Shown: positions 1,537 through 61,084 of the stretch, in pieces | Numbering within the stretch: the stretch's first letter is position 1 | Layout of the letters: every line of letters begins with the position of its first letter | Virus record (IMG/VR): IMGVR_UViG_3300009059_000716 | Location: 1-64,000 of that record | Length of the DNA: 64,000 nt | Source: a virus | Strand: one strand, 5' to 3' | The notes under the pieces: generated by a model | The model's input: only the letters and a program-made list of their open reading frames with translations | The model's database searches: none | Told to the model about the DNA's origin: nothing | Made by a program: the position numbers and the translations under genes

Positions 1537-3039
1537 ATGAATAAATTAGAAGAAATTTTTAAAGCTTGGAATATTGCCTTTAATCCAGATAATAAACAAT
1601 CTGAATTAGCATCCCAAAGAATAAAAATTTGCAATGCCTGTGAGCATAAGAAAACAGATTTAGGTATTAACAGATGTGGAGTATGTGGATGTGCACTTAA
1701 AGGTAAAGTTTTTTCTCCTGTTATTGGAGCCTGCCCAGAAGGTAAGTGGGATAAAATAGATAAAGAAATTATGCAAAAAGAAGATCCAATTACAGCAGAA
1801 GATACAATATTTGTACAAATAGCATCTTATAGAGATCCACAATTAGTTCCAACGTTGAATGATCTATTTGAGAAAGCAGATTTTCCTGATAATTTAAGAG
1901 TAACGGTAGTTTGGCAAACTTCCAAAGAAGACCAGTGGGATAATTTAGACCAATACAAAGATGATAGTAGGGTTAATGTAGTAGAGGTCCCATATCAAGA
2001 GTCTAAAGGGGCTTGTTGGGCAAGAAATTTAATACAGCAACACTACAAAGGAGAGAAGTATACTTTTCAACTAGACTCCCATCATAGATTTATTGAAGGG
2101 TGGGATAGTATCTTAATTAATATGTTGAGGTCTCTACAACAAGAAGGGTTCAAAAAACCACTTCTTACAAGTTACATATCTTCTTTTGACCCCGATAATG
2201 ACCCAGAAGGAAGAGTACAAGTTCCCTGGAAAATGGACTTCGATAGGTTTACCCCAGAAGGAGTTGTGTTCTTTCTACCTTCGACTATAGAAAATCACCA
2301 ATATCTATCTAAACCAATAAGCGCTAGATTTTACTCTGCTCACTTTGCTTTTACAGTTGGGGAATTCGCTAAAGAAGTACAGCACGATCCAGAATTCTAT
2401 TTTCATGGAGAAGAAATTAGCATAGCAGTAAGAGCGTATACACATGGGTATGATTTATTTCACCCTCACAAGGTAGTAGCATGGCATGAATATACTAGAA
2501 AAGGCCGGACTAAACACTGGGATGATAGCAAAACATGGTCACAGACTAATACGTATACACACAAAAGGGTAAGACAGTTATTAGGTACCGATGGGGAAGA
2601 AATGACTAATGATTTTGGAATATATGGATTAGGTACTGAACGTTCGTTAAGTGATTATCAAAGATACGCTGGTATCAGATTTAGAGATAGAGGAGTGCAG
2701 AAATACACTACCGGAAACTTTCTTGCCCCTAACCCTCCAGTAGACGATTATGAAAATTCATTCTTTAGTATATTTAAACATTGTATAAATGTACATAGAA
2801 ATTCTTTACCGGAGACAGATTACGATTTACTGGTAGTAGCTTTCTTAGATGAGAATGGAGCTGATCTTTATAGAAAAGACGCAGAAAAAACAGAAATGGA
2901 TCGTATTTTTAGCGCTGATGGTGAATGGTTAAATATTTGGAGAGAATACACCGGACCACTTCCTCATAAATGGTTAGTATGGCCACATTCGGTTTCTAAA
3001 GGTTGGTGTGATAGAATAGAAGGTAATTTAGGTAACTAA
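1537..3039 (+). CDS. Cys-rich N-terminal domain fused to Gnt1-like (Skp1 hydroxyproline) GlcNAc-transferase
   Basis: N-term CxxC..CxxCGC..CPxGKW; IFVQIASYRD, GACWAR, QLDSHHRF, FHGEE, AYTHGYD. Confidence 0.75.
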   Translation: MNKLEEIFKAWNIAFNPDNKQSELASQRIKICNACEHKKTDLGINRCGVCGCALKGKVFSPVIGACPEGKWDKIDKEIMQKEDPITAEDTIFVQIASYRDPQLVPTLNDLFEKADFPDNLRVTVVWQTSKEDQWDNLDQYKDDSRVNVVEVPYQESKGACWARNLIQQHYKGEKYTFQLDSHHRFIEGWDSILINMLRSLQQEGFKKPLLTSYISSFDPDNDPEGRVQVPWKMDFDRFTPEGVVFFLPSTIENHQYLSKPISARFYSAHFAFTVGEFAKEVQHDPEFYFHGEEISIAVRAYTHGYDLFHPHKVVAWHEYTRKGRTKHWDDSKTWSQTNTYTHKRVRQLLGTDGEEMTNDFGIYGLGTERSLSDYQRYAGIRFRDRGVQKYTTGNFLAPNPPVDDYENSFFSIFKHCINVHRNSLPETDYDLLVVAFLDENGADLYRKDAEKTEMDRIFSADGEWLNIWREYTGPLPHKWLVWPHSVSKGWCDRIEGNLGN

Positions 3040-3040
3040 C

Positions 3041-3952
3041 ATGAATACACTTGTAACTGCAATTTATAACCACAGCCCTCATTCAAGAATAGGTGGAAGA
3101 GGTTATAGATGGGAAGATTATGTCGCCCCGTTTGAAAACCTACTACATTTAGGTTGTAATATTGTAGTCTATACTCAAGACGACCTAGTACAGGTTATTC
3201 AAGATTACTTTACCAAAAAAGCGTTCTTTAATTACAAAGTAATACCCTATAATCTCAACAACTATAAACACTCAGACAGTATATATAAACTTAAGGAGCT
3301 TTATAACATAATTGATAAAAACGGATTAGCTGAAGGTCGTTCAATTGTGGATAATGATAGAAATTACCATTTATGTTTATCCAAAACATACTTTGTTTCT
3401 GAGGTTATAAAAAATAACTACTTCGAATCAGAAAGGTACTATTGGATAGATGGAGGTCTATTTCATCATGGTCTATTTCCGGAAAGTTTAGGAGGGATAG
3501 AAAGAAGAACAGTACCTAATCCTGACAACTATTGGCCACAGAATAAAAAAAGTTTATGTAACCCCTTATTTTTTGAAAAACTCAATACAAAAGTAAAAGA
3601 TAAACTACTGTTTATAGGAATAGACAGTTACTACAGCCGTCATTTTTCACTAATTAAGAGTAATTTAGCTGGCCCTGATAAAATTACCCATGTAGTAGGA
3701 GGATTGTTTGGAGGAGATAAAAATAAAGTCTTAGAACTATGTGAAAAGTTTGATGATAAAATTTCACAAGTTATTTCAGCAAAAATACTCACACTAGAGG
3801 AAGAGATACTATCTATAGTATATGAAGAAAACTTCTTAGACCAAGATTATATTAAATTCTCAGACTGGGGTCATGATATACCTACCGAACGAAACTATTT
3901 AGGGGTCCAACCAGGATCAAATTCTTTCTACAAAATTTTTAAAGATGAGTAA
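3041..3952 (+). CDS. HtrL/WlaTC-like glycosyltransferase
   Basis: TLVTA start, YYWIDGG, GGLFGG, EExILS. Confidence 0.6.
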   Translation: MNTLVTAIYNHSPHSRIGGRGYRWEDYVAPFENLLHLGCNIVVYTQDDLVQVIQDYFTKKAFFNYKVIPYNLNNYKHSDSIYKLKELYNIIDKNGLAEGRSIVDNDRNYHLCLSKTYFVSEVIKNNYFESERYYWIDGGLFHHGLFPESLGGIERRTVPNPDNYWPQNKKSLCNPLFFEKLNTKVKDKLLFIGIDSYYSRHFSLIKSNLAGPDKITHVVGGLFGGDKNKVLELCEKFDDKISQVISAKILTLEEEILSIVYEENFLDQDYIKFSDWGHDIPTERNYLGVQPGSNSFYKIFKDE

Positions 3953-8397: not shown

Positions 8398-9456
8398 ATG
8401 AAAGAAAACTACATATGCTCAGTTCCGTTTACTTCGTTTGAAATTCAGGATAAAGAGAATTACCTGTGCTGTGCCTCTTGGCTTACTAAGTCTATTCCTA
8501 AAAGTGAATCTATAAAAAATTCATGGAATTCTATTGAAGCTAATGAAATAAGGGAATCTATTTTAGACGGATCCTATAAATACTGCGATGAAAATCAATG
8601 TCCTTTTTTAAATCAAGTACAGAAATTCGGTAGTATAGGAAAAGTAGAACCACTGTACTTAAAAGAACAACTACCTAGAGCACTAAAGCAGCAAATAAGT
8701 AACTTTGAGAATAAAAAATTAGAACCTCAAGTAATTCAGTTTTCTTTTGATAGAAGTTGCAACCTTGAATGCCCTACTTGCAGAATAGGAATTATTACTG
8801 CTAATAGTAAAAAAATTAAAGAAGTAGAAGCCACAATACAGGAAATAGAGGATACCTATTCAAATTCTATAACTATTCTTTACATAACCGGTTCCGGTGA
8901 TCCTTTTATATCAGTAGGATTTAGAAATTTTTTACGGAATTTTAATAAAGAGAAGTATCCTAATTTAAAACAAATACATCTACATACAAACGCTACAAAG
9001 TGGAATAAGAAAATGTGGAATTCTATGAAGAATATACATCCATATGTTAAAAGTTGTGAAATCTCTATTGATGCAGGAACAAAAGATACCTATGAAAATA
9101 TAACCCGTATAGGAGGTAAATGGAATGAATTGATAGACAATTTAAAATTTATTTCTACAATACCTACACTCAAAAGAATTAAACCTTCTTTTGTTGTGCA
9201 AAAAGGAAACTATAGGGAAATGAAAATATTTTACGAATTAATGGTAAGTGTATTTGGCAATAAAGCAAATATATTCTACGGTAAAGTTAACAATTGGGGA
9301 ACCTTTTCTGAAGAGGAGTTTAACAAAATAAAAGTATGGGACAAAAAACACCCAGAATACAATAATTTTCTAAACGAAGTAAATAATACCCTACCTGCAA
9401 AAAATGCATGGAGTAATTTACAAGAATTTATAACTCCAACTAAGTATAACATATAA
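8398..9456 (+). CDS. Radical SAM protein with N-terminal SPASM/twitch-like Cys cluster
   Basis: CNLECPTC, GSGDPF, HTNA, ISIDA; N-term CSVPF..LCC..C..CP. Confidence 0.85.
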   Translation: MKENYICSVPFTSFEIQDKENYLCCASWLTKSIPKSESIKNSWNSIEANEIRESILDGSYKYCDENQCPFLNQVQKFGSIGKVEPLYLKEQLPRALKQQISNFENKKLEPQVIQFSFDRSCNLECPTCRIGIITANSKKIKEVEATIQEIEDTYSNSITILYITGSGDPFISVGFRNFLRNFNKEKYPNLKQIHLHTNATKWNKKMWNSMKNIHPYVKSCEISIDAGTKDTYENITRIGGKWNELIDNLKFISTIPTLKRIKPSFVVQKGNYREMKIFYELMVSVFGNKANIFYGKVNNWGTFSEEEFNKIKVWDKKHPEYNNFLNEVNNTLPAKNAWSNLQEFITPTKYNI

Positions 9457-9463
9457 GAACGTT

Positions 9464-11119
9464 ATGATACAATTAGGAATAGCAGCATTCTACCACGATT
9501 CAGCAGCATGTATCGTCAAAGACGGTAAAGTAATAGCCGCAGTAGAAGAAGAAAGATTTACAGAAATTAAACACGATGCTGCATTTCCTGTAAATGCAAT
9601 AAAATGGTGTCTGAAAGAAGCAAGAATTAAAATCACAGACATAGATGAAGTATGTTGGTATGAGAATCCTGAAACTAAAAAAGATAGAGTTAATAAAATC
9701 TTTAATAAAAGACCATTTACTACTTTTTTTCTTCGGAAGAAATTCTTACGGGAGTTTAAAACAAAGAATCCGGCTACGTTATTACAAACTATTGGATACA
9801 CAGGAAGGATATCTTTCGTTGACCATCATATGTCTCATGCTGCTTTTAGTTTTCTTACTAGCCCTTACCAATCTGCCGCGATTCTAACCGTAGACGGTGT
9901 AGGAGAATGGGAAACAGTAGGAATATACAAAGGTTCAGAAAACGGTATAGAGAAGGTGTTATCCATTGATTTCCCCAACTCTCTCGGTATGTTATACTCT
10001 ACGGTAACATCTTATTTAGGGTTTAAACCTAATGAAGGAGAGTACAAGGTAATGGGTCTAGCACCGTATGGAAATGCCTCTAAATACTTCGATAAATTAG
10101 ATAAGATATTTTGTCATTCAGATAATAAATTCTGGATAGATCAAAGATACTTTACTTGGGAGTATTCAGAACGTATAATGTTCAATAAAAAGTTTTGCAA
10201 ATTACTTGGATTACCGCCAAGACTTCCGGAAGATGAATTAACACAAGACCATAAAGATTTAGCAGCAGCTTTACAAAAAATCTACGAAAGAGAATTTGTA
10301 AGACTGGTCAAAAGAGCTAAACTTATGACAAGAGAAGTAAATTTATGCCTAGGAGGCGGATGTGCCTACAACGGTGTAGCAAATTCATTAGCATATGATC
10401 ATTTTGACAGTATTCATATTCCTTTTGCACCTTCCGATGCGGGATCAGCAATAGGAGCTTGTCTATATCAGTATAGAGGAGAAAGACAAGATAATTCATC
10501 ACCATATTTAGGTCCTGAATACACTAATTTCATAGTTCAGAGTACATTACATGGGTATGAAGATAAAGTTCAATGGTTTAAATTAACAGAAGAAAAGTTA
10601 ATTAAAAAAACAGCAGAACTTTTAAGAGGTCAAAATATAATAGCTTGGTTTCAAGGTAGAATGGAGTTTGGAGCAAGAGCTTTAGGAAACCGTTCAATTT
10701 TAGCATCTCCAAAAGATCCTAAAATGAGAGAGAAGCTAAATTACGTAATAAAAAAGAGAGAAGGATTTAGACCATTCGCTCCTTCCGTAACAGAAGAACA
10801 AGCCGATAGATGGTTTTATGTTCAAGAGAATATACCTTATATGAATCAAGTTGTAAACGCCAAAGTAAGAGACTTAGAAGCTGCAACACATGTAGACGGA
10901 TCATGTAGAGTTCATACAGTAACTAAAAAACAAAATCCAAGATATCACGCACTCATTACTGAACTTGGTAGAATAGATGAAAAAGCAGTTGTACTCAACA
11001 CCTCTTTTAATCTTAAAGATCAAACAATCACTATGACTCCAAAACAAGCAATAGAAAGATTTATAAATTCAGAAATAAACTATTTAGTAATCAATAATTT
11101 TTTAATAAGAAAAATATGA
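9464..11119 (+). CDS. Carbamoyltransferase (NodU/CmcH family)
   Basis: HDSAA, EEERF, HHMSHAA, DGVGE, KVMGLAPYG, GARALGNRS, FRPFAP, LNTSFN. Confidence 0.93.
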   Translation: MIQLGIAAFYHDSAACIVKDGKVIAAVEEERFTEIKHDAAFPVNAIKWCLKEARIKITDIDEVCWYENPETKKDRVNKIFNKRPFTTFFLRKKFLREFKTKNPATLLQTIGYTGRISFVDHHMSHAAFSFLTSPYQSAAILTVDGVGEWETVGIYKGSENGIEKVLSIDFPNSLGMLYSTVTSYLGFKPNEGEYKVMGLAPYGNASKYFDKLDKIFCHSDNKFWIDQRYFTWEYSERIMFNKKFCKLLGLPPRLPEDELTQDHKDLAAALQKIYEREFVRLVKRAKLMTREVNLCLGGGCAYNGVANSLAYDHFDSIHIPFAPSDAGSAIGACLYQYRGERQDNSSPYLGPEYTNFIVQSTLHGYEDKVQWFKLTEEKLIKKTAELLRGQNIIAWFQGRMEFGARALGNRSILASPKDPKMREKLNYVIKKREGFRPFAPSVTEEQADRWFYVQENIPYMNQVVNAKVRDLEAATHVDGSCRVHTVTKKQNPRYHALITELGRIDEKAVVLNTSFNLKDQTITMTPKQAIERFINSEINYLVINNFLIRKI

Positions 11120-23402: not shown

Positions 23403-25049
23403 ATGAGTAAGAAAATTACATTTTCAAATGACGCTAGAAATAAACTAGCTGACGGAGTAGATAAATTAGCAAATGCAGTTACAGCAACATTAGGTCCATC
23501 AGGCCGTAATGTTATCATCGAACAAGATATGGGTAATCCAGTATCTACGAAAGATGGTGTAACAGTAGCTAAATCTATTGTACTAAAAGATAAAGTAGAG
23601 AATTTAGGAGCACAGATTGTTAAACAAGCTTCTATTAAGACGGCAGAACAGGCAGGTGATGGTACAACAACATCTACCTTACTTGCACAAACTATTCTTA
23701 ATGACGGTATTGATTCTTTAGATGCAGGATCAAATGCAGTAGACGTTAAGAGAGGTATTGATAAAGCAGTAAAAGAAGTAGTTAAGTTTTTAGAAACTGA
23801 TTACTCAAAAGAAATAACGGATGAAGAACAGCTAAAACAAGTCGCTACAATTTCAGCCAACAACGATACAGAAGTTGGAGAATTGATCTCTACTGCTATG
23901 GATAAAGTAGGAAGAGATGGTGTTGTTACAATCGAAGAATCCAAAACAGGAGAAACATATCTCGAAACAGTCGAAGGTATGCAATTCAATCGCGGTTATA
24001 AGTCTCCATACTTCGTTACGGATAACTCTACCATGACTGCTGTTCTTCAAAAACCGTTGATTTTAATTACCGACAAGAGGTTAAATGCAATCAAAGAGTT
24101 ACTTCCAATCCTAGAAAGTGTCTCACAGCAGAACAGATCTTTATTAATAATTGCTGAAGACCTAGATGGAGAAGCTTTATCGACACTAGTAGTTAACAAA
24201 ATGAGAGGAATCTTATCTGTAGCTGCAGTTAAAGCTCCTGACTTTGGAGATAGAAGAAAAGCAGTCCTAGAAGATATCGCAATCTTAACCGGGGGTCAAG
24301 TAATCTCATCAGAGAAAGGAATGAGATTTGAGAAGTTTGACACTAATTGGTTAGGTTCAGCTAATAAAGTTACAGTAGGTAAAGATACTACTACCATCAT
24401 TGACGCTAAAGGAGATGAAGAGAAGATTACCCAAAGAGTAGAAGAGATTAAAAATCAAATTGATGATACTAAATCTCCATACGAAAAAGAAAATCTTCAA
24501 GATAGATTAGCTAAATTCATCGGCGGTATTGCAATCGTTCACGTAGGAGGAATGACAGAAGTAGAGATGAAAGAGAAGAAAGATAGAGTTGACGATGCAC
24601 TACATGCAACCAAAGCAGCTTTAGAAGAAGGAATCTTACCTGGAGGAGGAATTGCATTACTAAATGCAGCCACAATGCTAGAAAGTAGATTAGACTCAAT
24701 TGAATCTAAAGATGAATACAAAGGATATCAAATTGTATTGAATGCATGCGAAGCTCCTTTCAGAAAAATCTTATTAAACGCAGGTTTTACTTCAGATAAG
24801 ATAGGAGAAATTGATACAGAGTTACAAAACTCTAAAGATAAATGGTTAGGTTTTAACCCAAGAGCTGACAAAACAGTTAATATGTTTGAAGCAGGAATTA
24901 TTGATCCAACCAAAGTTACAAGATTAGCACTAGAAAATGCAGCATCGGTTGCTGGTACGATGTTGATTACAGAGGCAGTAGTCTCTAACTTACCAGAGAA
25001 AAACAAAAAAGAAAGTAATGGTATGGATCCAAACATGCTATTAGGATAA
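23403..25049 (+). CDS. groEL: Chaperonin GroEL
   Basis: [42 protein letters not shown]. Confidence 0.97.
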
Positions 25050-31434: not shown

Positions 31435-32040
31435 ATGAAGTTTTCAGCAGAGAAAATAAAAAAAGCAGTTGAATCAAAAGGATATAAATTCTTCGAAGGA
31501 GGAAACTACAACCTTAATATTATAGGAGTTAGAAACTCAGACACTAAAGGTAAAGTTACTAATAGATTTGATGACTTAATTACAGTATCTTACCAAGTAG
31601 ACGGAGTACAGAAGTATCATGAATTCGATGCAACTACCGATCCAGGTTCTCATTGGGAAAGGAATTTACTTAATGAAGACGGAGTAGCAATACTATGCCC
31701 AGGTCAGTATAGAGGTTCCCATACTATTGGAATGCATCAAGGTAAATACGAGGCTCTAAAACAACAGAAACCTGTCAAAGTTTACCGAGATAATAACAAA
31801 GACGGTGATTATGATATGTTAGAAGAAAATATCAAAGAAGGTATTTTTGGAATCAACATTCATAGAGCTACAGCTAAAGAAGGAGGAAAGTCCACTCAAG
31901 TTGACAAATGGTCTGCAGGGTGTCAGGTAATAGCAGCAAATAGTGATTTTAAACTACTTATGGAATTAGCTCACAAAGCAGCAGACTTGTACGGTAAATC
32001 ATTTACCTATACGTTAATTGAATCAAAAGACATCTTATAG
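31435..32040 (+). CDS. Probable endolysin, L,D-transpeptidase-like His/Cys motif
   Basis: NIIGVR, TTDPG, GINIHRA..WSAGCQV; flanked by membrane genes. Confidence 0.6.
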   Translation: MKFSAEKIKKAVESKGYKFFEGGNYNLNIIGVRNSDTKGKVTNRFDDLITVSYQVDGVQKYHEFDATTDPGSHWERNLLNEDGVAILCPGQYRGSHTIGMHQGKYEALKQQKPVKVYRDNNKDGDYDMLEENIKEGIFGINIHRATAKEGGKSTQVDKWSAGCQVIAANSDFKLLMELAHKAADLYGKSFTYTLIESKDIL

Positions 32041-42128: not shown

Positions 42129-42807
42129 AAATAGTTTTAGGGAAGATATAGAGTTCATTTTTACTAAACTAAAAAATAAAGAGAAGTTTAGTTTTAGTAA
42201 ATACGCTGATGGAGAGTTCGCAATACTAGCTAACCAACGTATAACCAATATCGATAATTGGACTTTTGATCCAACAAAACATTCTGAGATTAGGAATGAA
42301 TTAATAAGATCGTTCCAATTTAAAGATCCTGAATACTACGTAGGAGTTAGCTGTAAGTGCTGCCAACCTGAACAAATAGTAAACTGGATGAGACAAGAAT
42401 CAAAACAAGATGTTCTTACTTGGGCTAACATATTTGTTAATAGTAACTACCCTTACTTCCAAGAGAATTTTATTCCGGAATTTAGTAACCATAAAGTAGT
42501 TTTATTTGCAAGAGAAGATGCTCGTACAAATGAATTACCATTTGAAGTAGAACATATACCTATAACTTCGGAAGCTTTTATAGATAATTTTGATATGGTA
42601 GAAAATTTTCCTATAGAAGAATATAAAGACAAGTTATTTTTATTCTGTGCTGGACCATTAGGTAACATGTTAGCAGCTAAATTTTGGGAAAAGAATAAAG
42701 AGAATACATATCTTGATATAGGTTCAACATTAAACGGATACTTAACTGAAACTAATAGAGGGTACCTTAAAGGAGGTAACACAGCACTAAAAACTTGTAT
42801 ATGGTAA
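42121..42807 (+). CDS. GT-D-fold (DUF1792-like) glycosyltransferase
   Basis: FSKYADGE, CAGP, YLDIGS. Confidence 0.6.
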   Translation: MIKNSFREDIEFIFTKLKNKEKFSFSKYADGEFAILANQRITNIDNWTFDPTKHSEIRNELIRSFQFKDPEYYVGVSCKCCQPEQIVNWMRQESKQDVLTWANIFVNSNYPYFQENFIPEFSNHKVVLFAREDARTNELPFEVEHIPITSEAFIDNFDMVENFPIEEYKDKLFLFCAGPLGNMLAAKFWEKNKENTYLDIGSTLNGYLTETNRGYLKGGNTALKTCIW

Positions 42808-43781
42808 ATAAAGTCTTAATTTGTTTTGGAACAAGACCTGAATGGTTGAAAGTAAAACCTTTAGTTGAGACTTTAGATAACTGTCAACTACTCTTTACCG
42901 GTCAACATAAAGACTTACTTGCTGATATAAAAGTAGACTATAGAATAGAAATAGGAGATCAAACAAATAGACTTGATCAAATCATAAGTGACTGCTTACT
43001 TCAATTCCCAGAAGGAGACTTCGATACAGTCTTAGTTCACGGCGATACAGTTTCAGCTCTTGCTTGTGCTCTAGCAGCATTTAGTAGAAAGAAAAAAATC
43101 ATTCACCTTGAAGCAGGTTTAAGATCTCATGATTTGACTCAACCTTACCCGGAAGAAGGGTACAGACAAATGATATCTAGAATAGCAGATATAAACTTTG
43201 CTCCAACTGAACTGTCAGCTGAGAATTTAAAACAAGAAAGAGTTTTAGGAACAACACACATTGTAGGTAATTCAGTTTTAGATAACTTACTGCCATTAAA
43301 AGATGAAGCAGTATATGGAGACAAAGTTCTAGTCACCTTACATAGATGGGAGAATCATATTTGGATGGATAAATGGTTTAAAGAAGTAAACCAACTAGCG
43401 ATTGATAACCCTACCTTAGAGTTTATCATTCCTCTACACCATCATCCCGAAGTACAAAAACATAGAGAATTACTAACACATGTTAATGTAGTTCCGTCTT
43501 TACCTCATACTGAACTTTTAGATATAATGTTACAATCTAAACTCATCATATCAGATAGCGGAGGACTTCAGGAAGAAGGAACATTCTTTAATAAGAAAGT
43601 AATTGTATGTAGAGATGTAACTGAAAGACCAGAAGGTATAGAAACAGGACATTTACATTTATGTCATTACCCAGAACAGATATCTGATATCTTTTATAAG
43701 ATTTTAAATAATTACGAAATAGATACAAAATGTCCATACGGTGAAGGTAATACAGCCAAACTAGTTAAAGATTTACTATGA
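42801..43781 (+). CDS. wecB: UDP-N-acetylglucosamine 2-epimerase
   Basis: GTRPE, TGQH, HGDT, HLEAGLRS, PEE, TLHR, DSGGLQEE, TERPE. Confidence 0.92.
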   Translation: MVNKVLICFGTRPEWLKVKPLVETLDNCQLLFTGQHKDLLADIKVDYRIEIGDQTNRLDQIISDCLLQFPEGDFDTVLVHGDTVSALACALAAFSRKKKIIHLEAGLRSHDLTQPYPEEGYRQMISRIADINFAPTELSAENLKQERVLGTTHIVGNSVLDNLLPLKDEAVYGDKVLVTLHRWENHIWMDKWFKEVNQLAIDNPTLEFIIPLHHHPEVQKHRELLTHVNVVPSLPHTELLDIMLQSKLIISDSGGLQEEGTFFNKKVIVCRDVTERPEGIETGHLHLCHYPEQISDIFYKILNNYEIDTKCPYGEGNTAKLVKDLL

Positions 43782-53567: not shown

Positions 53568-53627
53568 TTGTTTATTTGAATTATTCTTCTTATATTAAGG
53601 TATAATTAAAAAATGATAATAAAGGTT

Positions 53628-54845
53628 ATGAAAAAAATTATTTTAAGTCTAAGCATTCTTTTTATAGTTAGCTGTACAAAAGATTCATTTACAGATACTG
53701 AACTTGAAAAAGTAATTGACACAGTACCTATCGCAGATAACCCATTTAGTGTAACCTATACACCCGATTATACGAAACCTTCTTACTATACCAGATTGCC
53801 ATTTCCAGAAAATGTAAAAAATGGTACATATAGAGAGTTTAGCAATTGGCACCCTCCTCTAGAAGCTGTAGTTTTAGACTACGATAAAGATGGTTACTTA
53901 GACATTATAGACAATCAATCAGACTACGGGGTATTTAGAAGAAACAGTATACTATTTCTAAAAGGTAATTCTTCTGGTAAGTTAGATATTGATAGGGAGA
54001 ACTCATATAAACATACTGGTCTCATTCATGGGCGGAAAGGTCTTGTAGGTGATTACAATGGAGATGGATGGCCAGATGTATTTTTTATTGGACATGGATA
54101 CGATGTAGTAGACGGAAATCCAAGAGATGAATACCCCATAATGCTCCTTAATAATCAGGGGAAAGATTTTGAATATAGAGCTTTTGAATCAGTAGTTGGT
54201 TTTTTTCATACGGGTGCTAGTGGAGATATAGATAACGATGGAGATTTAGATATACTAGTAATTGACGGTACTAAAGGAGTTAGTAATTCTTATATCTTTA
54301 TCAACGACGGAAGTGGTAACTTTGAAAAGAAAACTTTAGATCAATATTCGTCTATACCTAATAATCTCTATGATTCATTTTTCCAAAAATGGACTGTGGA
54401 ACTAAAAGATATAGACAACAACGGGTACTTAGATATTATAATAGCTGGTGCACCGGATATGTATGATAGTACACCGCCTACTATAATGTTGAATTCTGCA
54501 AATGGATTTACCAGTAAAATTGAACTACCAAGAGAACCTGTATATAAATTAGTTGTAGATATAGACTTTTATGATTTTGATGGTGACGGGATAGATGAGT
54601 TAATACTAAACAGAACACCTTTAAATTATATATCTTATAAAGTTACTATTCATAGTTTAACTAGTGACGAGTACTTAACCACTACCTACTTCAATAACAG
54701 TGAGTATACAGGTCAGACTTCAGATAAATGGATGTATTGGATTTCTATCATTGAAAAAGATGGGGAACTATATTTAAAGGGAGACGATATGTATACTCCA
54801 CATGAATGGATTTTTGAAGATGGAAAGTTTAAAAAAATAAAATAA
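53628..54845 (+). CDS. Lipoprotein with FG-GAP/VCBS repeats
   Basis: Lipobox IVSC; repeated DxDxDGxxD (DYDKDGYLD, DYNGDGWPD, DIDNDGDLD, DIDNNGYLD, DFDGDGIDE). Confidence 0.85.
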   Translation: MKKIILSLSILFIVSCTKDSFTDTELEKVIDTVPIADNPFSVTYTPDYTKPSYYTRLPFPENVKNGTYREFSNWHPPLEAVVLDYDKDGYLDIIDNQSDYGVFRRNSILFLKGNSSGKLDIDRENSYKHTGLIHGRKGLVGDYNGDGWPDVFFIGHGYDVVDGNPRDEYPIMLLNNQGKDFEYRAFESVVGFFHTGASGDIDNDGDLDILVIDGTKGVSNSYIFINDGSGNFEKKTLDQYSSIPNNLYDSFFQKWTVELKDIDNNGYLDIIIAGAPDMYDSTPPTIMLNSANGFTSKIELPREPVYKLVVDIDFYDFDGDGIDELILNRTPLNYISYKVTIHSLTSDEYLTTTYFNNSEYTGQTSDKWMYWISIIEKDGELYLKGDDMYTPHEWIFEDGKFKKIK

Positions 54846-55244
54846 ATGATAAAAGGAGTAATTGCCGGAAACTTTGACGTAATGCATCCAGGCTACATAA
54901 AGATGTTTAAAGAAGCAGCAGCAAATTGCGACTGTTTAGTAGTCTTACTTCATACTGACCCTTCTATTGAACGCCCACATAAGCTTAAACCTATTCTATC
55001 TATAGAAGAACGTAAAGAGATGTTGTTTGAATTAAAATCAATATGTGGCATACTTACGTATACTTATGAAGAACAGCTCTTAGACTTACTAAAAATGGGG
55101 GAGTTTGATGTAAGGTTCCTTGGAGATGATTATAAAGGTAAGCCTTTTACTGGAGACTATCTAAACATTCCTATTTATTATTTGAATAGGGATCACGGGT
55201 GGTCTACTACAAAGTTTAAAAAAATGATAGCTAAAACTGTATGA
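54846..55244 (+). CDS. Cytidylyltransferase family (TagD/RfaE-like)
   Basis: GNFDVMHPG, ER.E, GDDY, R.H.WSTT. Confidence 0.85.
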   Translation: MIKGVIAGNFDVMHPGYIKMFKEAAANCDCLVVLLHTDPSIERPHKLKPILSIEERKEMLFELKSICGILTYTYEEQLLDLLKMGEFDVRFLGDDYKGKPFTGDYLNIPIYYLNRDHGWSTTKFKKMIAKTV

Positions 55245-55365
55245 TAATACAGGAAAAGATTTTAACCCCTCACCTAGCTACAGAAGTTACTTCCGGAAAA
55301 CGTTTAGTACTCGTATAATGTTCTTAAGACAAGAAAACTTACAAATTAAAAGTGGATTAATTTGA
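55241..55365 (+). pseudogene. Internally deleted, frameshifted 2OG-Fe(II) oxygenase remnant
   Basis: MIIQEKILTP-HLATEVTSGKRLVLV, then shifted frame MFLRQENLQIKSGLI*; matches termini of downstream oxygenases. Confidence 0.6.
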
Positions 55366-55430
55366 ATCTTCTTATTAGATTACAAAACATACCTATATTT
55401 ATATTAAATAAAGCTTTATAACTTATAATC

Positions 55431-57635
55431 ATGAAAGGAACCCTTTTTTCAACAGATTTTGTTAAAGACTCTAATGGAAACTTAAGATTGCTTGAAATCA
55501 ATACAGATACTGCTATTGTTTCTTCTGCAATCAAACAATTAGACTTTACAGGATTTAAACAAGTATTAGAAAGTAATTCTATTACAAAAGTAAAGACAAT
55601 CCATAAACTATATCAAGAAGATATCGTAGAAGCATTAAAAGCATACTTAGATGCAAATGTACCTTCAGTAAACTCTTTTGAAAGTATAGTTGAAGATAGC
55701 AACACTATTTATCCTACATCTGTAGAAGATGCAGCAGATACCTTTATCTTAAGGTTAGCTTATGATGAAGCTGCATTATTAGATAGTGAATATGCTAAAA
55801 ACACACACAATATTCTAAAACTATTCAGCGACAATGGGCAAATTAGTTCAACAGTTGGGTATTATTATGCTGGAGGCGGTAGTATAGAAGACCACCTTAC
55901 AAGAGATTTTAATGCTGAAAACGTTCCTGATATTTTAGTTAAAAACTTGAACACTACTTTAGGAGAGCCGATTGAGTTCTTTAAAATAGGTCAATCAAGT
56001 AAGACAGCTGAAGATAGATTTGCTGATGTATTCGATATGTTAGATGATACTAAAATTGCTATGAACTTCTACAACGATGAAGCAGCAGCAAAAGTAGAAT
56101 CTTTTAGAACATTACACATAGTATACGGAAGCGACCTAAACGTTATCGATGTAGCAGGATTTAAATCTTCAGCTATATTAGATAAACCAGCTTCTCTATC
56201 AGTAGTAGATGAAGATATAGTAACGAAAGTAGATGTAAAGCACTACCATGAATTAACTACTACATTACCTAGATTTGGAGTAGGTTCTAACTACGGAGGT
56301 ATCTTTGAAGAAGAGTTTATTGTAAAAGCAGACGGTACGTTAGTACCTATTAAAGACGCTACAGTAGGAGATTCCTTTAAATCATACTTTATTTCAGGTT
56401 CACCCGATACAGACATTGAATCAGAATATCTAGCATGGACTTACCCAGGATCTGAATTACCTAGTGGTTCTTACGCTACAACTTCTACTTTAGTAAACAA
56501 CTTAGAAGTAGGTTTATTCTATAATATGATCTTCCACGTAACTTTACAAGACGGAAGTGATTTTAGAGCAACAGGAAACTCTCACGTATTAGTTTACGAT
56601 GTACAGGCAGACTTATTAAAGTATGTTGCAGTAAACTATCTATCATCAGATAAACATAAATTAATATCTGCAGGAAATGGATTAGTAGATATTACAGGAG
56701 TTGTTTGTGAGATATTAGATGGGGAGTATTCTTCTCATATTCTAGATATGGAAATAGCCGATACATTCTTCATCGGTGATGGACAATTAAGCGTTAAGAT
56801 TGTTGCCCACAACTGCTTCCCAGCTGGTACTAAAATTACAATGGCTGATGGTTCAGTCAAAAACATTGAAGACGTTAAGGCAGGAGATAAACTATTAACT
56901 ATCAACGAAAATACTTTAGAACAATCAGAAGGTAGAGTTGGAGATGTATTAGTTAAGAAAGATAGATTGTTATTCGAATTCAAATTAGAAGACGGAGGAG
57001 TAATCAAATCTACATCTCATCACAGATATTTCGTAAAAGAAAAGTCATGGTTAACTGCTCAAGATATTCAAGTAGGAGACGTATTAGTTAGATCAAACGG
57101 AGATGATGTCAAAGTAGAATCAATTGAACAGCACGAAGGTGAGTTTGAAGTATTCCATATTATTGATGTAAAAGATAACCATACTTACTACGCAGAAGAT
57201 ATTTTAGTTCATAACTATAAAGCTTGTTTCATCGCTGGAACAGAGATTACTTTAGCGAATGGAGATGTTAAAAATATCGAAGATGTAGCAGTAGGAGAAG
57301 AAGTTCTTACTTACAACGAAGATAAAAAAGAAACAGAAGCAGGAGTAGTAGGAGACTTGAAGAAACATGAAGTTCAATCTGTAATCAGATTAACTCTTGA
57401 TAATGAGAATGTAATCGTAACAACTGAAGAACATCCTTTCTATGTAGTAGATGCAGGATGGGTAAAAGCAGGAGAATTACAACCATTAGATGTTTGTTTA
57501 AAAGAAGACGGTAAAGAATCTCTAATCTCTTCAGTAGAGGTATTAGAAGAGAAACATGAAGTATTTAACTTACTAAGCGTTTCTGAAAACCATAACTTCT
57601 TCGCTAACGGAATATTAGTTCACAATAAAAAATAA
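55431..57635 (+). CDS. Circularly permuted ATP-grasp-like domain fused to three tandem Hint domains
   Basis: DFVKD..G.LRLLEINTDT; Hint1 G290..VAHN, Hint2 C462FPAGT..LVHN, Hint3 C599FIAGT..LVHN. Confidence 0.8.
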   Translation: MKGTLFSTDFVKDSNGNLRLLEINTDTAIVSSAIKQLDFTGFKQVLESNSITKVKTIHKLYQEDIVEALKAYLDANVPSVNSFESIVEDSNTIYPTSVEDAADTFILRLAYDEAALLDSEYAKNTHNILKLFSDNGQISSTVGYYYAGGGSIEDHLTRDFNAENVPDILVKNLNTTLGEPIEFFKIGQSSKTAEDRFADVFDMLDDTKIAMNFYNDEAAAKVESFRTLHIVYGSDLNVIDVAGFKSSAILDKPASLSVVDEDIVTKVDVKHYHELTTTLPRFGVGSNYGGIFEEEFIVKADGTLVPIKDATVGDSFKSYFISGSPDTDIESEYLAWTYPGSELPSGSYATTSTLVNNLEVGLFYNMIFHVTLQDGSDFRATGNSHVLVYDVQADLLKYVAVNYLSSDKHKLISAGNGLVDITGVVCEILDGEYSSHILDMEIADTFFIGDGQLSVKIVAHNCFPAGTKITMADGSVKNIEDVKAGDKLLTINENTLEQSEGRVGDVLVKKDRLLFEFKLEDGGVIKSTSHHRYFVKEKSWLTAQDIQVGDVLVRSNGDDVKVESIEQHEGEFEVFHIIDVKDNHTYYAEDILVHNYKACFIAGTEITLANGDVKNIEDVAVGEEVLTYNEDKKETEAGVVGDLKKHEVQSVIRLTLDNENVIVTTEEHPFYVVDAGWVKAGELQPLDVCLKEDGKESLISSVEVLEEKHEVFNLLSVSENHNFFANGILVHNKK

Positions 57636-57640
57636 GAATC

Positions 57641-57781
57641 ATGCCAGTAGTATATAAATCATTTGATTACCAAACAGAAGCAAGAGACAAAGCAGTAGAA
57701 GCAGCAGATGTAACTACAAAACAGCAAATGAATGACATCGTTGCAAGCTTTGTAAATTTATTTAAAGCTAAACACCTATAG
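57641..57781 (+). CDS. Small protein, 46 aa (not in ORF track)
   Basis: MPVVYKSFDYQTEARDK...LFKAKHL; 5 nt after Hint gene, 14 nt before next. Confidence 0.65.
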   Translation: MPVVYKSFDYQTEARDKAVEAADVTTKQQMNDIVASFVNLFKAKHL

Positions 57782-57795
57782 TATACAGCTTTAAA

Positions 57796-58323
57796 ATGGT
57801 TACTGAAAAAACGTTATTCTCACAACAAGATTGCGAATACATTAAATCATTTTATGATGTAGCAATTGAGAAGAACGAAAAAGGTTTCAAAATAAACTCA
57901 GACAAATACCCACAAGGTATAGCAATAAAAGACGGTTCAGCAGTATCATGGAATGAAATCCAAAACGATACTCTGGACCGTTTCTTGTTAAGTAAGCTTA
58001 TAGAGTTAGAAATAACTTCACTCCCTTATCTTAAGCTAATGAAGTACGGAGTCGGAAATGAAATGAAACCTCATAGAGATTTTCAGGCATATGATACAAG
58101 TACAATCTATAGATCAACAACAATACAGCTAACCAGTCCGGAAGATTATAAAGGAGGAGAGTTATATGTAGAAGGAGTAAAAGCTAGTAATATACAAGGA
58201 ACTGCAATTATGTTTAACCCCTATCAAACACATTGGGTTACAGAGATTACTGAAGGAGAAAGATGGGTTATAGTAGCTTTTTTAGAAGAGTTTCATTTTA
58301 ATACTAAGAAAAGTTTATTATGA
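57796..58323 (+). CDS. 2OG-Fe(II) oxygenase (prolyl-hydroxylase-like)
   Basis: KY..G..PHRD, YKGGEL, H.VTEITEGER. Confidence 0.88.
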   Translation: MVTEKTLFSQQDCEYIKSFYDVAIEKNEKGFKINSDKYPQGIAIKDGSAVSWNEIQNDTLDRFLLSKLIELEITSLPYLKLMKYGVGNEMKPHRDFQAYDTSTIYRSTTIQLTSPEDYKGGELYVEGVKASNIQGTAIMFNPYQTHWVTEITEGERWVIVAFLEEFHFNTKKSLL

Positions 58324-58829
58324 TTGATCAAAAAGTATTATTTACAGCAGAAGAATGTGAGTGGTTGAAATCCGCACAATCAACTATATACCCACCAGTA
58401 GAAGATACTAAATGGTGGGAGTCACATCGTATAAATTATAGATTTAAAAATATACAAGAAAGAGAAGTATTTGAACAGTCACGTTTAGATTTTGTTGCTA
58501 GTAGAGTTAAACAATTAGGAGTGAAATCTGTTCCTACATATAAAATTATACATTACGGTAAAGGTGGATTCTTCGCCCCTCACATAGATTCAGGGAGAAA
58601 CCATCCAATTAGAAGAAAAACATTATTAGTGCAGCTATCCTCTAAAGAAGATTATTCTGGAGGTGATATGTATGTTAAGGGTGTACTTTTTGAAAAGACA
58701 ATAGGCAATACAATATTATTTGATTCGTCATTAACTCATGAACTAAAATTAATAGAAGGAGGAAATAGATTAGTTATGGTCACATGGTTATCTATTTATA
58801 ACCTTGAGAATCCTAAAACTTTACTATGA
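58320..58829 (+). CDS. 2OG-Fe(II) oxygenase (prolyl-hydroxylase-like)
   Basis: HY.KG.FF.PHID, YSGGDM, HEL..I.GG.R. Confidence 0.88.
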   Translation: MIDQKVLFTAEECEWLKSAQSTIYPPVEDTKWWESHRINYRFKNIQEREVFEQSRLDFVASRVKQLGVKSVPTYKIIHYGKGGFFAPHIDSGRNHPIRRKTLLVQLSSKEDYSGGDMYVKGVLFEKTIGNTILFDSSLTHELKLIEGGNRLVMVTWLSIYNLENPKTLL

Positions 58830-59350
58830 TAACAGTTAAACATAACGTACTGTCGGATAGAGAGGTAAACAAGCTACTCACTTTATGGTATGATACAAAA
58901 CCTAACCATATTATAACAGACGGCTATAAGTATAATATTGAAGCAGTAGAGATTTTAGACTACATAGATAAATTAAAACTTTCGTATTCTTTTCCAAAAG
59001 AACACTATAGGGACTTTATACTACAGACAATAGATGAAACACATAGCAAAGCTCCTAATCATGACAAATATCACCGACATGAAAATGAATGGACATATGT
59101 TATGTACTTAAATGATAACTATCAAGGAGGAGAAATAGAGTTTACTAATGGAACTATCATTAAACCACAAGTAGGAGATGTTATATACTTTTCACCTGAA
59201 GAAGGACATAGAGTTAAACCCCCATATGATTTTACCGAACAGTATTTTAAACACAACGGTAAGAGTATTCTTATGAATAAAAGATGGTCACTTGTCGGAT
59301 TCATGAATTCTGACATTATAAACGAGAATAAAAAAACATGCTTAATTTAA
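58826..59350 (+). CDS. 2OG-Fe(II) oxygenase (divergent)
   Basis: HRH, YLNDNYQGGE, HRV, RWSLV. Confidence 0.8.
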   Translation: MITVKHNVLSDREVNKLLTLWYDTKPNHIITDGYKYNIEAVEILDYIDKLKLSYSFPKEHYRDFILQTIDETHSKAPNHDKYHRHENEWTYVMYLNDNYQGGEIEFTNGTIIKPQVGDVIYFSPEEGHRVKPPYDFTEQYFKHNGKSILMNKRWSLVGFMNSDIINENKKTCLI

Positions 59351-60042
59351 TTTATACCTATTCAATCAAACTTAGCGGTAACAGTATAGAAAAATACGTT
59401 AAACTCCTAAATAAAGCATACCTACATAACAGTAAGTACCATTCTATAGTACTATATACCGATAGGGAGACATTACCGTATGTAGAAGATATTTTTCCGG
59501 AGATAAGATTAGTAGAAATAGACAATCTTCAATTTATGGATGATATAAAAATGAAGATTATAGATAAACTTGAAAGCAATAGTATACTTACAGATTACGA
59601 TATCTTTTTAAACTCACCTTTAATACTTCCAGACAATTTTGATGTGTATGTAGATAGAAGAGGTAAGGTAAAAGAGTTAGTACTGTACAGCCATTTGTTT
59701 GAACATTTAAGACATGAAGGTTATGGTATTTTTACTAAAGATGTAAATACCTATTTGAATGTAGGTATATTAAAAATCAACAGTGAACATAAAATAAAAG
59801 CTATTAAAGACGCATATTACGCTTTAAGAAATTGGTATGTGGATAATAAAATAGAAGAAAGAACTCAATTTACATACCATACAGGAGTATGCCCTTCTAT
59901 AGCAGCTTTACAGTACAATTTAGATAAAATAGCTACTATAAGTAACTGGAAAGTATGTGAGATGAAAAAATACAACAACTACCATCATTTAGTTGGAGAA
60001 GATAAATTTAAAGAAATAAGCACAAAAAATACTGTGATTTAG
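59338..60042 (+). CDS. Nucleotide-diphospho-sugar transferase-like protein
   Basis: LYTD, K, DYDIFL, NVGI, HLVG. Confidence 0.55.
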   Translation: MLNLIYTYSIKLSGNSIEKYVKLLNKAYLHNSKYHSIVLYTDRETLPYVEDIFPEIRLVEIDNLQFMDDIKMKIIDKLESNSILTDYDIFLNSPLILPDNFDVYVDRRGKVKELVLYSHLFEHLRHEGYGIFTKDVNTYLNVGILKINSEHKIKAIKDAYYALRNWYVDNKIEERTQFTYHTGVCPSIAALQYNLDKIATISNWKVCEMKKYNNYHHLVGEDKFKEISTKNTVI

Positions 60043-60102
60043 TTGTCAAAACAGTATATTTTTCATATATTTAGATATATTAATCTATTAAAGACAAATG
60101 TT

Positions 60103-60291
60103 ATGAACAAATTATTTTTTGTACCTTCAACCAAAATTAACGCAAGAATTGCCGACACTGTTGTTACAGGACAGCATATTACAGTAGAAGGGTTAACTTA
60201 CCAAATGGTATCAAAAAGACCACTTGGAAGAAGAGTACTAAGACGTCTAATTAACGAATCTACAAATACAAAAATTGTAATCTATTCATAA
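60103..60291 (+). CDS. Small hypothetical protein
   Basis: ORF from GTT-ATG 60103 after promoter. Confidence 0.55.
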   Translation: MNKLFFVPSTKINARIADTVVTGQHITVEGLTYQMVSKRPLGRRVLRRLINESTNTKIVIYS

Positions 60292-60295
60292 CCAA

Positions 60296-61084
60296 ATGAA
60301 AGCAATATATAGCTACAAAATATTCTCAGACCAACGTAAACCTTTAGATAAAACGTTTTGGAAACTAGCTGCATATAGTGTTAAGTCTGCTTCTAAGTAT
60401 TATAGAACAGTTCTGTACTCCGATGAAGAAAGTGGAAAGCTATTTGATAGACACGGAATTTATTTTGATGAGTATCATATTCTTCCTGAAATAGAAAATT
60501 ATAAAGGAAGGGTTTATAGTGTACCAAAAATATATGCAATGATTGCTGAGAAAGAGCCATATATTCATTTAGACTTTGACTCTGTAATACTGGAAGAGAT
60601 TATATCTACACACACTATTACATACGCATATACAGAAGTTGATTTAATAAATCTAGCAGGGTATGCTAGAATAGATTACGTATTTGGAGGATATGTAAGA
60701 CCTTATCGAGACTTGTTGGTTGATATATTTAAGGATGATATAATATATCCTGATTTTAATATAGTACCTAACCATTCTTTTCTGATGGTAAAAAATCCAA
60801 CTATTGTTAGAGAGATTTACAAAAGAATACTCAGTAAAATACCAGCGGACATATTAGAAGAAGTAAGCCCTACATTATTAGAGCAATGTCTACTTTACCT
60901 ATACTTAAAAGAAAATCAAACAGATATAGGATACTTAAGTTGGTATTCAGCAGAGAAGTTTTTAGAACGTGAGTTCGGTTCTTATAAATTTATACATTTA
61001 CCATTTTACAACGAACCGGAAAAGAAAGAAGAAGTAGAGTTTGTTCTTAAAAAACTTGAAGAACAATTCGGCCCAATCGAATAA
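60296..61084 (+). CDS. Nucleotide-diphospho-sugar transferase-like protein (DUF6734-like)
   Basis: LYSD, PKIYA, PYIHLDFD, EQ..L, FIHL. Confidence 0.6.
   Translation: MKAIYSYKIFSDQRKPLDKTFWKLAAYSVKSASKYYRTVLYSDEESGKLFDRHGIYFDEYHILPEIENYKGRVYSVPKIYAMIAEKEPYIHLDFDSVILEEIISTHTITYAYTEVDLINLAGYARIDYVFGGYVRPYRDLLVDIFKDDIIYPDFNIVPNHSFLMVKNPTIVREIYKRILSKIPADILEEVSPTLLEQCLLYLYLKENQTDIGYLSWYSAEKFLEREFGSYKFIHLPFYNEPEKKEEVEFVLKKLEEQFGPIE

Follow-up and report, generated by a model that had tools for sequence, protein, structure and literature searches.

A Lys-containing hydrophobic C-terminal tag on unrelated tailoring enzymes beside an ATP-grasp/Hint gene of a large phage: a candidate docking element

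Large phages of marine and freshwater environments carry arrays of oxygenases, SET proteins, radical SAM enzymes and other tailoring enzymes. One such array lies in the DNA analysed here (the window), i.e. the first 64 kb (positions 1 to 64,000) of IMG/VR virus record IMGVR_UViG_3300009059_000716, where K-x-x-[LIV][LI]-COOH is the end shared by the products of four consecutive genes, i.e. three oxygenases and a 234-aa protein unrelated to them. This short C-terminal tail is termed the tag below. The source record, from an uncultured marine phage, spans 94.8 kb (CheckV completeness 58%), has a G+C content of ~33% and carries its genes almost all on the plus strand. Its products include a ribonucleotide reductase, GroEL, a DNA polymerase, glycosyltransferases and a baseplate wedge protein, indicating that the source is a large tailed phage. 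The tagged genes follow a gene for an ATP-grasp/Hint protein and a small partner gene, in the gene row examined here:

54846-55244, plus strand: cytidylyltransferase-like gene (PF01467), untagged, product ending AKTV.
55241-55365, plus strand: pseudogene remnant of a tagged 2-oxoglutarate (2OG)-Fe(II) oxygenase, with the former tail IKSGLI at 55345-55362, out of frame.
55431-57635, plus strand: 734-aa ATP-grasp/Hint protein, assigned from Pfam Hint families and from AlphaFold2 (AF2) modelling with Foldseek.
57641-57781, plus strand: 46-aa partner protein ending FKAKHL, no Pfam or PHROG match, not a tag bearer.
57796-58323, plus strand: 2OG-Fe(II) oxygenase 1 (PF13640, E-value 1e-9), tag TKKSLL at 58303-58320.
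58320-58829, plus strand: 2OG-Fe(II) oxygenase 2 (PF13640), tag NPKTLL at 58809-58826.
58826-59350, plus strand: 2OG-Fe(II) oxygenase 3 (PF13640, E-value 2e-8), tag KKTCLI at 59330-59347.
59338-60042, plus strand: 234-aa non-oxygenase protein, no Pfam match, tag TKNTVI at 60022-60039.
60296-61084, plus strand: 262-aa array member with a weak DUF6734 match, untagged, ending FGPIE.

All four tails quoted in the initial annotation (i.e. TKKSLL, NPKTLL, KKTCLI and TKNTVI) were confirmed at their genes. Window oxygenases 1-3 scored 39.5, 39.4 and 35.3 bits against a PF13640 cut-off of 27, and the HxD...H triad and 2OG-binding Arg (i.e. H93, D95, H146 and R156) were invariant in 27 oxygenase sequences. 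Among 11 orthologues of oxygenase 1 with 65-98% identity, K172 (position -4) was invariant and the final two residues were always aliphatic, the last eight residues otherwise varying. The core's last strand ended at residue 163 in an AF2 model of oxygenase 1 (predicted local distance difference test score, pLDDT, of 87), and the last seven residues were modelled as coil with a pLDDT of ~54. The distance from this strand to the C-terminus ranged from ~7 to 13 residues among oxygenase paralogues; on the basis of the coil and the variable linker, a structural terminal strand of the fold was rejected as an explanation of the tail. Oxygenase 3 formed its own BLAST cluster; this gene is absent from relative L004 and present in relatives L012 and L007. 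The 234-aa protein had no Pfam or PHROG match and no BLAST link to the window oxygenases. Its family has lengths of 233-249 aa, and all 13 members found in relatives end in two hydrophobic residues. No PHROG match was obtained for the 262-aa protein.

Tails were scanned in all 161 called open reading frames (ORFs) of the genome. A motif combining K at -6 to -3, S or T at -4 to -3 and two terminal aliphatic residues was observed six times; judged from hexamers within the proteins of this AT-rich genome, 0.3-0.5 occurrences would be expected. As this motif was defined post hoc, independent data were sought in relatives. A UDP-GlcNAc 2-epimerase (42795-43781, ending LVKDLL) fitted a loose form of the motif and was rejected as a tag bearer, its end being counted as chance because the Pfam domain reaches the final residue. 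A 201-aa protein at 31435-32040, with no Pfam match and ending ESKDIL, also fits the loose pattern, lies far from the module and could be either a tagged enzyme or a chance match.

The remnant at 55241, put forward earlier as bearing an IKSGLI tail, proved to be a true oxygenase pseudogene. Alignment showed that 55241-55365 matches, near perfectly, both ends of an intact 175-aa oxygenase (L012:350-877, ending QIKSGLI), from which it differs by an internal deletion of ~400 nt and a 2-nt insertion. This insertion places IKSGLI (...QENLQIKSGLI) out of frame. Intact copies of this oxygenase end HIKSGLI in L004 and QIKSGLI in L012. Of two weaker matches suggested at the outset, KAKHL in the product of 57641-57781 is a different motif, as none of its 14 copies ends in two hydrophobic residues. 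The other, PTKYNI on the radical SAM enzyme at 8398, is degenerate in this genome but has homologues ending NKKSLI, TEKTLI and SKDII, and the gene falls into one cluster with radical SAM genes from L013, L018 and L024 that are tagged. This same enzyme carries the tag SKDII in L013 and the degenerate TKYNI in the window. It belongs to a second conserved cluster (8398-11119), where it lies beside a NodU/CmcH-like carbamoyltransferase; the counterpart of this cluster at L013:817-5034 also holds a DUF6734-like gene. The radical SAM gene and the candidates beyond the window are located as follows:

8398-9456, plus strand: radical SAM enzyme (PF04055), away from the array, degenerate tag TKYNI.
66614-67144, outside the window: GNAT protein, tag SPKSIL.
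67141-67662, outside the window: fourth oxygenase, overlapping the GNAT stop, tag KDSTLI.
76616-77041, minus strand, outside the window: weak fifth oxygenase, tail STISII.

The relatives comprised 14 non-redundant loci from metagenome and viral contigs of up to 245 kb. In every locus with a full-length ATP-grasp/Hint gene, this gene and a 45/46-aa partner were followed by two to eight genes nearly all ending K-x-x-[LIVMF][LIMF]-COOH. Ends of two hydrophobic residues were found for genes 1-6 after the small ORF in 14/14, 12/14, 11/14, 9/13, 8/11 and 8/11 loci, respectively, as compared to ~12% of genes elsewhere, and the share dropped to background beyond gene 6. Tagged genes made up 63 of 88 array genes and 23 of 352 genes elsewhere (Fisher P = 4e-36; 14 loci), and the corresponding numbers of tagged BLAST families were 14 of 26 and 6 of 209 (Fisher P = 2e-11). 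Tagged enzymes included PF13640 and PF13759 oxygenases, two SET groups, several radical SAM groups (one with SPASM) and GNAT proteins, while the tagged families without names had lengths of 233-249, 194-211 and 406-417 aa; weakly GDSL-like proteins were tagged too. At least ten unrelated families are thus tagged. A restriction of the tail to oxygenase paralogues, named in the initial annotation as a refuting outcome, does not hold, and paralogy was rejected as the cause of the tail.

The presence of the tag on many unrelated enzymes could also be explained by packaging into the capsid or another phage-built compartment, as encapsulin cargo peptides are short, C-terminal, hydrophobic and Lys-containing and bind an HK97-fold shell. 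We consider a packaging signal of this type to be very unlikely, since the tagged arrays adjoin ATP-grasp/Hint and nucleotide-metabolism genes rather than structural genes and the motif is unlike the GSLxIGSLK type.

A family-weighted logo of the tag exhibited I (0.61) or L (0.19) at -1, L or I in 84% of cases at -2, S (0.20), N (0.16), K (0.15) or T (0.13) at -3, and K at a level of 30-43% at each of -4, -5 and -6. The consensus was hydrophobic(-8)-x-K-K/N-K-[S/N/T/K]-[L/I]-[I/L]-COOH, with -1, -2 and -4 as the best-kept positions. The original reading of the tail as an S/T-x-hydrophobic ligand of PDZ-like domains does not fit these data well. A third-last S or T was present in only ~1/3 of families, making the PDZ analogy weak; three of the four window tails have this residue, KKTCLI being the exception. 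The tail was further examined with a profile hidden Markov model of the oxygenase family; in a search of 1.84 billion representative proteins, this model gave 13,188 matches with E-values of up to 0.001. Within the best 150 oxygenase clusters (mutual identity at most 50%), 132 had the two-hydrophobic end and 109 had an upstream K/R in addition. A few exceptional clusters end W-x-x-G-P-x-F-K, resembling classical enzymes that stop at the fold.

These enrichments might have arisen with no protein function for the tail, as a by-product of AT-rich codons, paralogy, start overlap with translational coupling, or a DNA linker for recombination. The most frequent residues are K, L and I, and the next start was overlapped by 4 or 1 nt in 45 of 84 tagged genes. 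AT-rich composition was nevertheless rejected as the cause by the internal-hexamer control and by whole-genome comparison, the AT-rich control genome having no enrichment, in agreement with the earlier expectation that the tail would exceed its compositional frequency. Start-codon overlap was rejected because ~38 of the 84 tagged genes end clear of the gene that follows; the distance from the end of a tagged gene to the next start ranged from -41 to +1148 nt, and intergenic gaps in the L018 array were 2-60 nt. A DNA motif was rejected because codons turn over while the residue class is kept. Across 176 homologous pairs, the -2 codon differed in 85% with both residues hydrophobic in 96%, and the -1 codon differed in 66% with both residues hydrophobic in 89%. 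Tail codons matched genomic codon usage, and the tag abutted the stop codon, in frame, in every case.

One point in favour of a contribution at the DNA level comes from the junctions of gene cassettes. Cassette boundaries between close relatives fall within tail-coding DNA, as observed on comparison of window positions 58809-58829 and 60022-60060 with L004:7400-7440. Relative to L004, oxygenase 3 and the 234-aa gene are inserted in the window between AAAACTTTACT and GT(A/G)A..TAGTTGT, and one junction is marked by a common 12-mer, TAAAACTTTACT. In L004, the orthologue of oxygenase 2 ends IKKDFI, encoded by non-homologous codons, and the old tail-coding 12-mer sits past its stop. The position of the boundaries and the leftover 12-mer favour some DNA-level contribution; the new L004 end, however, is once more a fit to the tag, a point in favour of protein-level selection. 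Gain and loss of cassettes between close relatives also fits the initial idea of 'plug-in' enzymes. An explanation as a DNA-level by-product is largely excluded, and a tail devoid of protein function is regarded as extremely improbable. The data show that a flexible C-terminal tag exists, that it is selected at the protein level and that it is present on many unrelated tailoring-enzyme folds.

Co-occurrence of the tail with the ATP-grasp/Hint gene, a check proposed in the initial annotation, was borne out by the array comparison and by comparisons of SET records and whole genomes. Among 73 other viral loci, the encoded SET homologues (40-66% identical) terminate in ...GRSHIEVK, ...HQEVKM or similar, with the ends of their neighbours at background, and tagged SETs were found only in ATP-grasp loci and one 10-kb fragment. 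A profile of the N-terminal 450 residues of the ATP-grasp/Hint protein was used to search 37 SET records. The profile matched each of the four larger records that carry a tagged SET (25-100% complete), including L039, in which a divergent ATP-grasp copy lies right beside the SET gene, but none of four jumbo genomes, complete or nearly so, whose SET is untagged, and none of 29 fragment records. The oxygenases arrayed on L005, an unrelated viral contig, carried no tag, and neither did those of the cultured cyanophage S-8S53, which stop at the fold. The complete, ATP-grasp-bearing 245-kb genome G003 contained 21 tagged genes as compared to 9.0 expected (P = 3e-4), six of them consecutive after the ATP-grasp gene. 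A complete 271-kb genome free of this gene (G030) contained 13 as compared to 8.6 expected, a non-significant difference, and had no runs of tagged genes. The tag is, in summary, linked to genomes carrying the ATP-grasp/Hint module and is an add-on to otherwise complete folds that is tied to this module.

The tagged proteins dispersed in G003 include six or more paralogues starting ...FGDS(F/W)T.G or ...GCSF (L107:2437-3210, L109:2950-4532, L109:15110-15826, L114:15751-16428 and L114:18345-19127), with GDSL/SGNH-like Pfam matches that were weak and below cut-off among those scanned. G003 also encodes a tagged radical SAM-SPASM enzyme (L114:2734-3966).

Recognition of the tag by a host factor was considered in the light of these distributions. 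The tail might be a ClpX-type degron, a signal for a tail-specific protease that limits enzyme lifetime, or a host localisation signal. The MuA tail RRKKAI is a C-terminal degron recognised by ClpX, and the tag resembles this type of motif in having a basic cluster followed by a nonpolar C-terminal end; the tail is also disordered and accessible in the AF2 model. Host proteases are, however, universal, yet homologues in ATP-grasp-free phages lack the tag, which is limited to a single functional module and does not mark early genes at large. A host reader is accordingly deemed distinctly unlikely.

The ATP-grasp/Hint gene heads every tagged array, and the 38-46-aa partner, with an end of F/I-K-x-K-H-[LSM], follows it in 14/14 loci. 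The 734-aa protein comprises an ATP-grasp-like region (residues ~1-300), a Hint-like domain lacking Cys1 (~300-461) and two Hint domains (C462-N595 and C599-N732). The latter are followed by YKA and by a terminal KK (...HNKK), respectively, so that neither full Hint precedes a Cys, Ser or Thr as +1 nucleophile. Residues 1-450 were modelled with AF2 using 12 homologues (pLDDT 69). Foldseek matched the first ~300 residues to YjfC (7uk6), YgiC, GspS (3o98) and glutathione synthetase (2hgs), with E-values from 7e-6 and TM-scores of ~0.3, and residues ~300-450 to inteins, bacterial intein-like domains and Hedgehog Hint. The N-terminal domain had no Pfam or PHROG match. A putative E-x-N Mg/ATP-binding motif (R19-L20-x-E22-x-N24-T25) was invariant in 12 homologues. 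The first 27 residues (GTLFSxDFxKDxxGNLRLLExNTDT; nt 55431-55510) resemble the C-terminal Mg/ATP-binding strand pair of ATP-grasp enzymes, and the location of such a motif at the N-terminus is suggestive of circular permutation of the ATP-grasp domain. The L039 homologue (2273-3823) has, instead of the two extra Hints, an end of ...LVQHN followed by a 49-aa peptide with ~nine Cys; from this comparison, Hints seem to have taken the place of the Cys-rich peptide in the lineage of the window. Comparisons with cultured phages matched the intein/Hint parts of the 734-aa protein (tblastn), with the N-terminal domain found in none of these phages, and the array DNA had no match in them (blastn).

We infer that the tag acts by docking. 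With moderate confidence, it is proposed that the tag marks the variable tailoring enzymes of one phage module, consisting of the ATP-grasp/Hint protein and the 38-46-aa partner, and that it is read by a module-encoded partner. The ATP-grasp/Hint protein is the most likely module-encoded candidate for this reader. It is strongly acidic (isoelectric point of 4.3-4.6), and the tag is Lys-rich. In the proposed mechanism, the ATP-grasp/Hint protein would bind the tag by its free carboxylate, both aliphatic side chains and the upstream Lys, and docking would bring interchangeable enzymes to one scaffold or substrate.

The same protein could instead use the tag as a substrate, its GspS/YjfC-like ATP-grasp domain activating the terminal carboxylate of tagged enzymes and ligating an amine (e.g. 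an amino acid, a polyamine or a Lys side chain), in the manner of RimK on S6 or tubulin-tyrosine ligase on tubulin. The resemblance of the N-terminal domain to ligases of peptide C-terminal carboxylates (i.e. glutathionylspermidine synthetase, glutathione synthetase and YjfC/YgiC), the invariable location of the tag at the exact C-terminus and its co-occurrence with the ATP-grasp gene are all in keeping with such a ligation. The fold match is, however, of modest quality, and it is not obvious what purpose would be served by modifying every enzyme covalently. Known protein-tail ATP-grasp ligases use acidic tails, unlike the basic and hydrophobic tags. Use of the tag as a ligase substrate is thus considered unlikely. 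A more elaborate version, in which the ATP-grasp/Hint protein would be a ubiquitin-E1-like ligase that activates the tag carboxylate, forms a thioester on a Hint Cys and transfers it to an amine, so joining tagged enzymes (or a released peptide) covalently to a target, is a long shot. If this were true, a new protein-conjugation system would have the tag as its recognition element.

Several observations weigh against recognition of the tag by a module-encoded partner. The tag is absent from some array genes (i.e. from the 262-aa protein in the window and, in L013, from a GNAT and an FkbM methyltransferase), tagged genes are in some cases located far from the module, and about a quarter of tags have no Lys. 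Searches for PDZ domains (PF13180, PF00595 and PF17820; E-value <= 1) gave no match in the 94.8-kb record, which is 58% complete, while all controls matched; a PDZ reader supplied by the host would lie outside this search. The ATP-grasp assignment rests on a model with a pLDDT of 69 and TM-scores of ~0.3, and the ATP-grasp/Hint protein of the window does not have an L039-type Cys-rich peptide that could serve as a common substrate. The co-occurrence, finally, rests on few complete genomes, and shared descent of related tag-bearing phages could mimic dependence; for these two reasons, it is suggestive rather than proof of dependence.

Other genes around the module are also conserved. The cytidylyltransferase-like gene adjoins the module in relatives L004, L012, L029 and L039 as well as in the window. 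A 62-aa ORF (60103-60291; MNKLFFVPSTK...ITIYS), untagged and without a family match, is kept directly 5' of a thymidylate-synthase-like gene in the window and in L004, L007, L012, L023, L029 and L039. Just 5' of the module, at 53613-54845, lies a gene for a 410-aa predicted lipoprotein (LSILFIVSC) with FG-GAP repeats. Elsewhere in the window, a full-length GroEL-like chaperonin is encoded at 23403-25049 (phrog_5725, E-value 8e-165).

The tag provides a simple sequence rule by which the enzymes of one system can be listed, and tag peptides could be used as bait, giving an experimental handle on the hub or substrate. It may also be portable, for the recruitment of arbitrary enzymes to one scaffold. 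If the ATP-grasp/Hint protein does read the tag, this would represent a new logic of peptide or protein tailoring, with the recognition element on the enzymes and not on the substrate. A literature search revealed no publication in which either the tag or the module is described.

Comparisons with known systems place the tag among C-terminal recognition peptides. PDZ ligands have, like the tag, a hydrophobic last residue and a free carboxylate on a flexible tail. They are of the form S/T-x-hydrophobic-COOH (class I) or hydrophobic-x-hydrophobic-COOH (class II), whereas the tag keeps positions -1, -2 and -4. The peroxisomal targeting signal type 1 (PTS1; S-K-L-COOH, read by the TPR domain of Pex5) is closer in organization, consisting of 3-6 C-terminal residues that need a free carboxylate, being appended to complete and unrelated enzymes, and being degenerate but conserved in residue class. 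Its [SAC]-[KRH]-[LM] pattern is not matched by the tag, in which Lys lies between -4 and -6 and aliphatic residues occupy the final two positions. The setting also differs, since the tag occurs in a phage with a bacterial host, where there is no peroxisome, and no TPR reader was found. The likeness to MuA RRKKAI (ClpX C-motif 2), also a phage-protein end with a basic cluster before nonpolar residues, holds at the sequence level only; the MuA motif concerns one protein and a host unfoldase, whereas the tag is present on many enzymes and tracks a phage-encoded ATP-grasp gene. Encapsulin cargo peptides share with the tag the property of being short C-terminal peptides common to unrelated enzymes, with the HK97-fold shell as a link to phage capsids. 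They differ in being ~10 residues long, Gly/Ser-rich and encoded beside the shell gene, whereas the tags have no Gly/Ser pattern and the tagged arrays adjoin ATP-grasp/Hint and thymidylate synthase genes, not capsid genes.

At the level of gene arrays, the nearest precedents are the tandem dioxygenase arrays of cyanophages (i.e. the Syn9 gp49 cluster), which comprise diverse 2OG-Fe(II) enzymes that are predicted peptide modifiers and for which no common tail was described (Iyer et al. 2010, PMC2938197). The window resembles these in having a diverse 2OG-Fe(II) array in a marine phage and differs in its tags, the S-8S53 oxygenases being untagged. Clusters for peptides synthesized ribosomally and modified post-translationally (RiPPs) also bear comparison with the module, as a changing set of radical SAM enzymes, oxygenases, methyltransferases and acetyltransferases accompanies one precursor. 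The Cys-rich peptide after the Hint in L039 may be compared with a RiPP precursor, whereas the window version has no such peptide. In RiPP systems, RiPP recognition element domains of the tailoring enzymes bind the leader of the precursor; in the module, this polarity would be reversed, with the recognition element carried by the enzymes themselves.

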